Source of the DNA: an uncultured Gemmatimonadales bacterium | GTDB lineage: Bacteria > Gemmatimonadota > Gemmatimonadetes > Longimicrobiales > Gaopeijiaceae | DNA length: 64,000 bases | Assembly: GCA_963809895.1 (NCBI GenBank) | Contig: CAWELD010000003.1 | Location: 160,001-224,000 of the forward strand | Reading direction: 5' to 3' | Part shown: positions 24,521 to 32,755 of the stretch, piece by piece | How the letters are laid out: each line of letters opens with the position of its first letter | Numbering within the stretch: the stretch's first letter is position 1 | Notes under the pieces: generated by a model | The model's database searches: none | What the model was told of the DNA's origin: nothing | The model's input: only the letters and a program-made list of their open reading frames with translations | Position numbers and translations under genes: made by a program

Positions 24521-25264
24521 CTATGGCAGCAGGGTCAGATCCGAGCGCAGCAGCCACAGCTCACTGTGGGCCCGCACGTCCGACGAGCCCGCGAGGGCCC
24601 GGCGAATCGCTCGCGCCGGATCCGTCGCCGGGTCGTCGAGGCTGGCCAGGCTCGGTCTCCACACCATCACCGTCACCTGGCCGTCGGCCGTGCCCACGGA
24701 GCTGGTGTACACCGTGTAGGGCAGGAGGCCGGCGCCCGGGGCGTCTCGTTTCACCGTGGCAAGCGCTGCTTTGAAGTCGGCCTCGGCCTCGGGGGCCACG
24801 GTGTAGGTGACCACCTGCGCCAAGGGCGGTGGTACCTCCCGCGCCTCCAGCGGTCCTGCGGTGCTCAGGTCGAGCCGGGCCCGCACTGCCCAGCGTCCGG
24901 TGGCTCGCGCATGGTCCGCGAACGAGCGGGCGGCGTGGGCTGCATCCGCGGCCGGGTCCACGCGGCGGTCCAACGCCTCGAACGAAATGCCGAAGGTGCC
25001 GTCCACGAACTCGCCCAGTCTCTGCCCGGCGATGACGTCCCACCCGTACCAGGGCAGCGAATCCCGTCTCGCTCGGTGCCATTGGAGGTGGGCACGATAC
25101 CCCTCGTCGAAGCTCGGCCGTTCACCCTGGTGGGGCCGGTAGGAGAAGAACATGCCGCCAACACCCTGGCCGTGGATCGGGGCGGGCGTGAGCACTACCA
25201 GGACGGCCAGGCAGAGCCCGGCGGGGGTGAGGCCGGTCCGACGCTCTGGCAATGATCGTCGCAT
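24521..25264 (-). CDS. Hypothetical secreted protein, possible NIPSNAP-like alpha+beta barrel
   Basis: Signal peptide then FDEGYRAHLQWH...WYGWDVIAG; two ferredoxin-like repeats each ending R.DL; divergent from LysR. Confidence 0.65.
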   Translation of the reverse strand: MRRSLPERRTGLTPAGLCLAVLVVLTPAPIHGQGVGGMFFSYRPHQGERPSFDEGYRAHLQWHRARRDSLPWYGWDVIAGQRLGEFVDGTFGISFEALDRRVDPAADAAHAARSFADHARATGRWAVRARLDLSTAGPLEAREVPPPLAQVVTYTVAPEAEADFKAALATVKRDAPGAGLLPYTVYTSSVGTADGQVTVMVWRPSLASLDDPATDPARAIRRALAGSSDVRAHSELWLLRSDLTLLP

Positions 25265-25336
25265 GGAGGGATTCTCGGGTTTGGAGGGCAGGCTTGCGGA
25301 GGTGTCAGGACCGCCAGATAATGGGCGTATATAGAA

Positions 25337-25368
25337 ATAAGTTGGCCAATTTATCAATTCCATAAATG
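25337..25368. promoter_or_regulatory. LysR-type binding region in the divergent promoter
   Basis: Near-perfect palindrome ATAAGTTGGCCAATTTAT then ATCAATTCCATAAAT, in an AT-rich patch abutting the LysR start. Confidence 0.6.
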
Positions 25369-27901: not shown

Positions 27902-29230
27902 ATGCCCGACGACCACGACATCGCGACGCTTCAGGACCTGGAGTGCTGCCCGAAGCTCGCCAAGGTGCCCACCTGCGACGTCCTCGACTTCCGCTACCGG
28001 CTTCCGTGGCGGCGGCAGGAGGGCCGTGTGGACGTGATCCTCCACTTCCGCCTGGAGCGATGCTCGGGACCCCTGGCGCTGGGGGACCTGGCGTACAGCA
28101 CCACGCTGTTCCCGGGCGAGCGCGTGCGCCTGTTCACCAGCGACCGGCACACGCGTTGGACCTACGATTCCGAGACGGAGCTGGCGTACCGCCACGAGAC
28201 CACCTCGGAGGAATCCTTCTACACCTTCGGCATGGCCCGCGCCATGAGCGACCTCTCCATCAGCGAGTCGGGGAGCTCGTCGAGCAGCCACGACGAGGAC
28301 TGGGCCTCGGGTGGCGGAGGCGCGTCGTTCAGCTTCCTCGGCATCATCAACATCGGTGGCGGAGGTGGAGGCGGAAGCTACGACGCCGATTCCAGCAGCC
28401 AGTTCGCCCGCAACCTGTCGCGCCACGCCGAGTCCTCGTCGAGCTACGTGGCCGCGGGCGTCCGCGCTCAGAGCACCACGTCGGTGGGCGAGGTTCAGCA
28501 ACGCAGCCACGCGGAAGGCGAATCGGAGTCCCACCTGGAGTCCGCGTCGCGGGTCTTCAGCAATCCCAACCGCTGCCACGCCGTCACCTACCTGTTCTAC
28601 AAGCTCATCAAGCAGCAGACCATCCGCTTCAGACTGGTGGCCATCGAGCGCGTGTTGGCCGATCCCTCCGCTCCCACGGCGCCGGATCGCACGCTCAAGC
28701 CCGACGTCGCAGGTGCCGTGGCGGTCCGTCCCCAGGCCGTGCTCGCCACCGCCAAGGATCGCGTGGAGGTGGAGCGGGTGGCCCGGGTGGCCGCGGCCGA
28801 GCGTCGCCAGGCGAGCCTGGGCCTGACCAGCGATGCCGTCGCGTTCGCCGGGGCGTCGCTGCGAGCCAACGCCTTTGCCGGTGAGCCGGCATCGGCGGCC
28901 GCGCGGGCCAAGGCCCTCGAGGCGGTGGACAAGGAGCTCGCCAAGGCCGGCCTGATCGACCGCGAAACCGGCGAGCCCACCGAGAAGATCATCGCCGACC
29001 TGTCGTGGGAGCGGGAGGAATGGCTCCCCACGCCGGGGCTCCTGGTAAAGGGGTGTCTGGACGCGTGCGGCACGTGCGAGCCGGCGCTGAAGAAGCAGAT
29101 CGAGCAGGAGCTGGAGCATCAGCGGCTCGAGAACGAGCTGCTCAAGCGCCAGATCGAGCTGCTGGACCAGGCCCAGGAGTATCGTTGCTGCCCCTCCGAC
29201 GAGGAGGAGGACACCGACGGCGATCACTGA
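27902..29230 (+). CDS. Hypothetical 442-aa protein, candidate beta-pore-forming protein
   Basis: Good RBS; Ser-rich segment with Gly-flanked hydrophobic tip; 10 Cys; C-terminal coiled coil. CDS is solid, function is inference. Confidence 0.85.
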   Translation: MPDDHDIATLQDLECCPKLAKVPTCDVLDFRYRLPWRRQEGRVDVILHFRLERCSGPLALGDLAYSTTLFPGERVRLFTSDRHTRWTYDSETELAYRHETTSEESFYTFGMARAMSDLSISESGSSSSSHDEDWASGGGGASFSFLGIINIGGGGGGGSYDADSSSQFARNLSRHAESSSSYVAAGVRAQSTTSVGEVQQRSHAEGESESHLESASRVFSNPNRCHAVTYLFYKLIKQQTIRFRLVAIERVLADPSAPTAPDRTLKPDVAGAVAVRPQAVLATAKDRVEVERVARVAAAERRQASLGLTSDAVAFAGASLRANAFAGEPASAAARAKALEAVDKELAKAGLIDRETGEPTEKIIADLSWEREEWLPTPGLLVKGCLDACGTCEPALKKQIEQELEHQRLENELLKRQIELLDQAQEYRCCPSDEEEDTDGDH

Positions 29231-29245: not shown

Positions 29246-29314
29246 CGGGCGGTCTTCGAGGGCCGCCCGTGCACCGAGCCCCCGGCAGCCGCGTCCGGCC
29301 GCCGGGGGCTCGGT
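29246..29314. terminator. Two hairpins between convergent genes, probable bidirectional terminator
   Basis: CGGGCGGTC/GGCCGCCCG (29246-29269) and ACCGAGCCCCCGGC/GCCGGGGGCTCGGT (29273-29314). Confidence 0.65.
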
Positions 29315-31621: not shown

Positions 31622-31676
31622 AGAATGTCCGACGGGCGTCCCAGGGCCATCTCGTTCCCGTCACGCAGACGTCCCG
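31622..31676 (-). promoter_or_regulatory. SARP-type direct repeats (four heptamers, 11-bp period) with a -10-like hexamer upstream of 31560
   Basis: Minus strand reads CGGGACG-tctg-CGTGACG-ggaa-CGAGATG-gccc-TGGGACG, 9 nt, CATTCT. Confidence 0.8.
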
Positions 31677-31879: not shown

Positions 31880-32755
31880 ATGACCTCCCTCGCCATTCAC
31901 CTGTTCGGGGGCGTCCGGGTCCTGCTCGACGGTGAGCCGCTCGGACCGTTTCCCACTCGTTGGTCCGCAGGGCTCCTGGGCTACCTGGCCCTTCACCGCC
32001 AACGGCTCTTCCACCGCGACATCCTGGCCGCGCTCTTCTGGCCCGAGGAGCCCGACGCCCGGGCCCGCAAGGCGCTTCGCAACGCACTGTGGCGCATGCG
32101 GGCGATGATCGAGCCGTCACAGGTGGAGCCGGAGCGCTTTCTCGTCGTCGAAGGTCAATCCGTGGGCCTTCGCTCTGGTCCCGACATCTGGGTCGACGTG
32201 GAGGAATTCGAGGAGCATACGCGCCCAGCCGACGCTGGACCCGTCGACCAGCGAGGCGCTGGACGTCTCGAACGCGCGCTGGATCTGTGGCGCGGCGAGC
32301 TCATGGACGGACACGACCACGAGTGGTGCGTCTACGAGCGCCAACGCCTCCGCCTGAGGGTGCTGGCTGCGCAGGAGCGTTTACTGGAGTTCCACATGTG
32401 TCGCGGGGCGTGGCAGGCCGCGCTCCGGCAGGGCGACGCGATCCTGCATCTGGACCCGTTCCGGGAGCACGTGTACCGGAATCTCATGCTCTGCCACCAT
32501 TCCATGGGCGATCGTCCGCTGGCGGTTCGCCGGTTCCAGCGCTGCAGAGAGCTGCTGGCCGACGAGCTCGGCATCGCTCCCATGGAGGAGACCCGGACGC
32601 TGTACGAGCAGATCCGCGCCGGCGACGTGCCCCACGGCGACGTCGCGATCCGCTCCGTGGACTCCAGGGTGGGACGCGCATTGCGGCGGGCCGAAGCCGC
32701 ACTCACCGAGATCCGCGCGCTCACCGCCATGGACGGCGCCATGGAGCACACCTGA
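31880..32755 (+). CDS. AfsR/SARP-family transcriptional activator (winged HTH + BTAD), stand-alone
   Basis: IHLFGG, LLGYLAL, RDILAALFWPE, LRNALWRMR, WVDVEEFE, ALDLWRGELMDG, LDPFREHVYRNLM, LADELGIAPMEETRTLY. Confidence 0.92.
   Translation: MTSLAIHLFGGVRVLLDGEPLGPFPTRWSAGLLGYLALHRQRLFHRDILAALFWPEEPDARARKALRNALWRMRAMIEPSQVEPERFLVVEGQSVGLRSGPDIWVDVEEFEEHTRPADAGPVDQRGAGRLERALDLWRGELMDGHDHEWCVYERQRLRLRVLAAQERLLEFHMCRGAWQAALRQGDAILHLDPFREHVYRNLMLCHHSMGDRPLAVRRFQRCRELLADELGIAPMEETRTLYEQIRAGDVPHGDVAIRSVDSRVGRALRRAEAALTEIRALTAMDGAMEHT

Follow-up and report, generated by a model that had tools for sequence, protein, structure and literature searches.

Is a 442-aa protein that matches no described family a membrane pore, and if so, of what kind? 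The question was raised by a gene at 27902–29230 (+) in a 64,000-nucleotide stretch, the window, of contig CAWELD010000003.1 from an uncultured Gemmatimonadales bacterium. The initial annotation proposed that its product, named here P0001, carries a stem hairpin like that of β-pore-forming toxins and oligomerizes into a long β-barrel. A computational follow-up indicated that residues 74–220 appear to co-vary as one hairpin of about 150 residues with a greasy, membrane-sized tip. We consider it fairly probable that P0001 is a leaderless, regulator-controlled β-pore former whose stem is of double length and whose C-terminal helix keeps it inactive. What the computation itself shows is that the family is conserved, in which registers the hairpin co-varies, how its length is constrained and in what order the strands follow one another in the predicted monomer.

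The predicted stem hairpin and its putative membrane tip

The stem hairpin (28121–28561, on the + strand as are all features of the gene given below) comprises 147 residues, is rich in Ser, Gly and Thr, and nearly lacks Pro (0.27 per sequence in residues 74–220 versus 8.8 in 255–390). Its coevolution was analyzed by mean-field direct coupling analysis of 266 sequences (effective number, 125). Among 82 anti-diagonals with a median score of −0.1, i+j=292 scored 11.3 and i+j=294 scored 6.2, and the next-ranked were the neighbors 293 (4.1) and 290 (3.9). On diagonal 292, 17 of 69 pairs had z>2 compared to a background of 3.8%, and permuted pairings reached at most 0.59 against observed values of 1.35 and 0.80. 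The same two diagonals ranked first and second in both the close and the distant half of the alignment, and in three of the four blocks. They did so in each of the two length classes as well, so the second register is not an indel artifact. The top coupled pair, E122–R170, joins a residue that is disordered in the monomer model to one that is helical. The span from P71 to N221 is 150–151 residues in 109 of 126 sequences. An independent repeat with 111 long relatives, described below, gave diagonals 199 (9.2) and 201 (6.6) of 165, with the hydrophobic tip at their center and the same Pro and Asn as their end points (P+N=199, compared to P71+N221=292).

According to the accessible text of PMC5654971, an anti-diagonal over about 80 residues is the pore-state signature of aerolysin and is matched to its 87 Å barrel. 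By analogy with aerolysin, same-parity registers two residues apart would fit one hairpin per subunit in a barrel of equal shear and strand numbers. The 147 residues would correspond to a barrel of about 160 Å by proportion or 188–196 Å by geometry. The hairpin of the initial annotation appears to extend over about 150 residues (74–220) rather than over the tip alone.

The distribution of the signal within the hairpin weighs against a barrel of this length. Coupling is strongest in block 119–135 (10.8), moderate in block 102–118 (4.5), where the top pairs are helically spaced, and weak in block 74–101 (3.3, the next diagonal being 2.5). Because of the moderate and weak coupling in the two outer blocks, the full stem length is likely but not established. 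The concentration of the signal in 119–135, together with the confidence of AlphaFold in helix 162–190 of the monomer model, favors a pore of ordinary size, in which just residues ~119–173 would form the inserted hairpin (60–75 Å) and the outer pairings would reflect the monomer. We find such a pore quite unlikely, however, since the strands, helix pair and tip of a monomer would have no reason to share a common register or to keep the fixed span of 150–151 residues. Moreover, when residues 74–118 are taken by themselves, 292 remains the first and 294 the second of 80 diagonals, and the P-to-N symmetry is identical in the long relatives.

The tip, W134–Y160 (28301–28381), is the predicted membrane-spanning segment. 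All 119 close homologs have W134 and an aromatic residue at position 160. In a diverse alignment of 135 sequences, the segment 134–160 has 26 or 27 residues in 117 of 132 despite wide sequence divergence; position 134 is aromatic in 93 of 132, and position 160 is aromatic or His in 124 of 132. The polar/non-polar alternation of both tip arms exceeded all 1,000 shuffles over 128 distinct segments, the relatedness of which was uncontrolled. Twelve residues at the tilt of aerolysin span 32 Å. As far as the accessible text of PMC4947156 describes it, the aerolysin pore has 14 strands, a shear number of 14, a length of 87 Å and aromatic rings 32 Å apart, the distance covered by those twelve residues. 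The tip has the alternation and the bilayer length of an insertion hairpin of the aerolysin superfamily.

The strand order of the predicted monomer is β1-β2-loop-β3-β4-insert-β5. In the accessible parts of PMC3110756 and PMC5654971, the core of the aerolysin superfamily is given as five strands, with an insertion loop linking β2 to β3 and a loop that varies linking β4 to β5. Such a core is found in the predicted models and couplings of P0001, that is, in models rather than in a solved structure. Strands β1–β4 and β4–β5 show antiparallel couplings, and the β1–β5 diagonals, which in a concentric double barrel would pair β5 in parallel with β1 of the next subunit, reached 2.7 at best, none being prominent. 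The coupling of C225 with C392 puts the C-terminus at the predicted barrel's mouth. Among the fold matches listed, none to aerolysin-type proteins was significant; in second-look structural alignments, aerolysin-type chains made up 14 of the 25 rows in one case and 14 of the 16 in another, and the nearest Pfam-named Atlas clusters in a language-model comparison were Aerolysin and ETX_MTX2 (0.77–0.83). Oligomerization into a long β-barrel, as initially proposed, gains support at the level of modeling from the two-register coevolution, the length-conserved amphipathic tip and the aerolysin-type strand order, as well as from the weak aerolysin/ETX-type neighbors in the language-model and fold searches.

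The wide fold search was headed by T-fold and SPFH chains. This result, the arrangement of a core followed by a long C-terminal helix, and the lack of a signal peptide would also suit a non-membrane tube, cage or filament (an SPFH/vault-like assembly or a T-fold-like ring), in which the hydrophobic tip would pack on protein. We regard an assembly of this type as highly unlikely.

The protein and its family

The open reading frame contains all the motifs named in the initial annotation. ECCP (residues 14–17, 27941–27952) and RCCP (residues 428–431), which had been described as terminal, lie 13 and 11 residues inside the ends. Strand β1 (residues 41–69) and the hairpin-opening GDLxYSTTLxPGE turn, common to the long relatives, occupy 28022–28120 and include LGDLAYSTTLFPGE (residues 60–73). 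The Gly-hydrophobic-Gly tip G137–S159 is encoded at 28310–28378. The hairpin is closed by the NxNxCHAVTY turn, which with strand β4 (residues 226–253) occupies 28562–28660; NPNRCHAVTYLFY corresponds to residues 221–233. A variable, Ala-rich helical insert (28661–29005) connects β4 to β5, and the predicted head domain is made up of this insert and the N-terminal strands. Strand β5 (29006–29080) has the LPTPG and CLDxCxxCE motifs (LPTPG...CLDACGTCE, residues 375–393) and includes C392, which co-varies with C225. It is followed by a 35-residue helix and RCCP (29081–29194), at a position that matches those of the aerolysin C-terminal propeptide and the tails of the long relatives; its role would be that of a catch, as proposed below. 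This helix (394–428) has a predicted local distance difference test score of ~97 in the predicted structure. The GC content of the gene region is 0.706, the same as that of the window.

These motifs are not a product of chance, since among 119 close homologs CCP is found in all 119, EYRCC in 115 and LxPGE in 116, and each of the ten Cys residues is retained in 211–222 of 217–223 sequences. By a simple hydropathy test, not a signal-peptide predictor, a hydrophobic N-terminal 10-mer was found in one of the 119, in agreement with the lack of a signal peptide noted initially, and a 19-residue window above 1.6, indicative of a transmembrane helix, in none.

Of 7,998 proteins scored in a word-indexed search with P0001, 1,937 had E≤0.001. 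Apart from the window's own protein, the 119 best relatives share 58–75% identity with P0001 and are all annotated as 'hypothetical'; their named hosts are Acidobacteria, Gamma- and Deltaproteobacteria, Anaerolineae and Planctomycetota. An exhaustive search, with clustering at 50%, yielded 800 representatives. Among the genome records found, the closest was a Gemmatimonadota bin with a 70% identical protein. There were no matches in Pfam, NCBIfam, PADLOC, PHROGs or PDB sequences, and neither of the Pfam profiles Aerolysin (PF01117) and ETX_MTX2 (PF03318) matched P0001 or, at E≤1, any of 35 family members. Its own genome has a single copy of the gene, which was found in two of 19 congeners. Of 300 genomes of the phylum, 13 had some form of the core: a full short form in one, a core-only match inside a longer protein in eight and a weak match in four. 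The family was absent from the viral contigs, phages and plasmids searched; the predicted structure of a 642-aa Yasminevirus protein (BFVD A0A5K0U6Q4) is a structural homolog (E 7e-17). No description of the family was found in the literature searched.

Long relatives and neighboring genes

A search for longer forms returned four proteins of 1,261–2,456 aa, and a long form used as query returned 865 proteins, of which 120 were listed. Long and short forms align at the profile level only (hhalign probability 99.1, 208 columns, 22% identity), and the opening motif and the tip recur in the long relatives, as do a closing motif, NxNxxHA, and, further along, LPTxG. Their N-terminal parts fall into one cluster in 107 of 110 cases, partly an effect of the single query, while their last 260 residues form 28 clusters among 119, the largest with 64. 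They combine a conserved trunk with variable C-terminal domains, as polymorphic toxins do. Two of 25 long forms scanned reached Pfam cut-offs (DUF2272 and Beta-lactamase2), most tips being unnamed; the C-terminus of P0273 is a papain-like C70 peptidase. In L103 (5708–8608, −) an N-terminal subtilase (Peptidase_S8) is fused to the core, possibly as a self-activating form. A hydrophobic N-terminus was seen in four of 124 long relatives. Several of the genes beside the seven long or fused forms looked at are unannotated, and no immunity gene was seen to recur there.

Long forms were also seen in amoeba-associated genera. P0186 has, N-terminal to the core, a fused module with an acidic DxDFxDL motif at its end; this module has no Pfam match, and we take it to resemble calcium-binding lectin domains. 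The same module is joined to partner proteins at L001 (9299–11434), L100 (5827–7941) and L027 (6228–8402). A third clade with the core, of 600–640 aa, is represented by L108 (1217–3142, +) and L109 (5491–7287, −), each member being followed by an unannotated gene of 260–290 aa. The 749-aa P0097 consists of a partner-type N half and the core, and is either a true fusion or an assembly artifact.

In the window, the convergent gene beyond P0001 (29341–31560, −) encodes a 739-aa Cys/Pro-rich orphan with no family match, an optional partner. A 19-bp inverted repeat without a T tail (29273–29314, assigned to neither strand) lies between the two genes. Gene neighborhoods vary among 80 metagenome loci. 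Among the 23 loci with 2.5 kb on both sides of the gene, a large Cys/Pro-rich orphan was found near it in nine, two of them near-duplicates. Such partners form five groups with no cross-group match, and the window's protein belongs to one of at least five groups of similar size; it is 28% identical to a neighbor of the family gene in L008/L076 and, used as query, was not found in 40 relatives. No enzyme domain was found in the partner proteins.

Three GAYG repeats with an 11-bp period lie upstream of the P0001 gene (27823–27848, +) and four upstream of the partner gene (31637–31673, −), and a BTAD (SARP-type) transcriptional regulator of 291 aa is encoded at 31880–32755 (+). The pattern has four matches in the window, three of them at this locus, compared to 0.25 expected. 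It occurs upstream of the gene in seven of 75 loci, five of which are BTAD loci and three of which helped define it, as against four of 4,296 background tiles. BTAD regulators were found in seven of 83 loci. In the window and both congeners the gene, partner and BTAD regulator are all present, in differing orders and chromosomal settings. SARP-type regulators bind 11-bp-period repeats, and the GAYG repeats upstream of the gene are likely the binding site of the BTAD regulator.

Could the same barrel, instead of being a lytic pore, be a conduit for a separate protein cargo such as the partner, either for export or as the B component in an A-B system? The varied C-terminal domains fused to the core in the long relatives, the C-terminus placed at the barrel mouth, the upstream repeat common to gene and partner, and P0097 all point in this direction. 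However, large Cys/Pro-rich neighbors occur in just the nine of 23 loci, in five groups without cross-group match and without any enzyme domain found, and P0097 is possibly an assembly artifact. We consider the conduit unlikely.

Delivery of tails through the pore would be plausible in the long relatives, where the tips follow β5 and would thus sit at the predicted barrel mouth. More broadly, and tentatively, since we hold it to be doubtful, the core may be the trunk of an undescribed protein-delivery superfamily, in which a self-assembling β-barrel of 160–190 Å, with the length needed to bridge a cell wall or periplasm, passes into target cells an exchangeable enzyme tethered at the C-terminus (a papain-like peptidase, DUF2272, a serine hydrolase or one of many unknown tips). 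P0001 would then be its minimal form, free of cargo, in a superfamily present in many bacterial phyla and an amoeba-infecting giant virus. If the long relatives do deliver their tips through the barrel, they would represent a leaderless polymorphic delivery route, of which no description was found in the literature searched.

Other genes were observed around the family. DUF1360-type small proteins are found in nine loci and NtrC-type regulators in nine. In L102 (8285–13918), from one genome, the family gene, a partner and a LuxR-type regulator adjoin a contractile-injection-system tube gene. At single loci, family members adjoin a papain and a chagasin inhibitor (L004, 6494–7834), an A4 peptidase (L055, 3814–4734), an aspartyl protease (L057, 6368–7699) and an H-type lectin (L075, 7391–7729). 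A downstream protein in L024 (9462–10190) has repeated GPxPEP and VALNPQPLPP motifs, with no Pfam match and no literature match for the motif. At 24521–25363 (−) the window has an open reading frame without a Pfam match, divergent from a LysR regulator.

Proposed mechanism and comparison with known systems

In the lytic pore that we favor, the soluble monomer would keep the hairpin as two helices (103–116 and 162–190) and a loose tip, while the head domain, made of the N-terminal strands and the β4–β5 insert, would dock on a surface. From its tether at the mouth of the barrel, the C-terminal helix may act as a safety catch like the aerolysin propeptide. In a ring of monomers, each contributing one hairpin with a two-residue offset between neighbors, residues 74–220 would refold into a barrel roughly double that of aerolysin in length, with the W134–Y160 tip alone crossing the membrane and β1, β4 and β5 forming an outer sheet. 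Insertion of the tip would open an acidic, Ser/Thr-lined channel and depolarize or lyse the target cell. The BTAD regulator would switch on the gene and its Cys/Pro-rich partner, and the protein, released without a signal peptide, may be an accessory weapon or defense protein. This scheme offers a testable mechanism for thousands of hypothetical proteins missed by profile and fold searches, and a one-hairpin barrel of about twice aerolysin's length would be new as a pore architecture and a candidate scaffold for nanopores.

Bacterial gasdermins and MACPF/CDC proteins resemble the family as cytoplasmic or leaderless pore formers with helix-to-strand refolding, and proteases lie beside some of the loci. 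These proteins have two hairpins per subunit, unlike the single symmetrical hairpin predicted for the window family; no gasdermin was among the listed fold matches, and MACPF chains appeared solely as non-significant rows. Binary toxin B components form a long barrel with one hairpin per subunit, whose tip is Gly/hydrophobic and whose acidic lumen lets protein cargo through, and the long barrel, tip and lumen predicted here are the points of likeness to anthrax protective antigen, CDTb and iota Ib. The window family had no Pfam or PDB sequence match to PA14, calcium-binding or Binary_toxB domains, and no binary-toxin-B chain or family was among the fold and sequence matches listed. The likeness to protective antigen drawn in the initial annotation thus appears to hold for the tip and nothing beyond it; the accessible text of PMC3110756 treats protective antigen as outside the aerolysin superfamily.

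The long relatives are similar to polymorphic toxin systems, as described in the accessible text of PMC3482391, in their conserved trunk, variable C-terminal tips and, mostly, lack of a signal peptide, but their trunk is a predicted β-pore, and the window protein has no C-terminal tip domain. They also differ from the broken-hairpin toxins, whose domain is short and C-terminal in the accessible text of 10.1101/2025.01.14.632903. The aerolysin/ETX-MTX2 toxins (aerolysin, epsilon toxin, parasporin-2, Tpp80/Bin and monalysin), although without sequence match to the window family, share its predicted five-strand order with the β2–β3 insertion, the Ser/Thr-rich amphipathic hairpin, the anti-diagonal coevolution with a two-residue offset, the variable β4–β5 insert and the extension after β5. 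Unlike them, P0001 has a predicted hairpin of ~150 rather than ~80 residues, partly stored as helices, and its family has ten conserved Cys residues, no signal peptide and relatives with polymorphic C-terminal tips.
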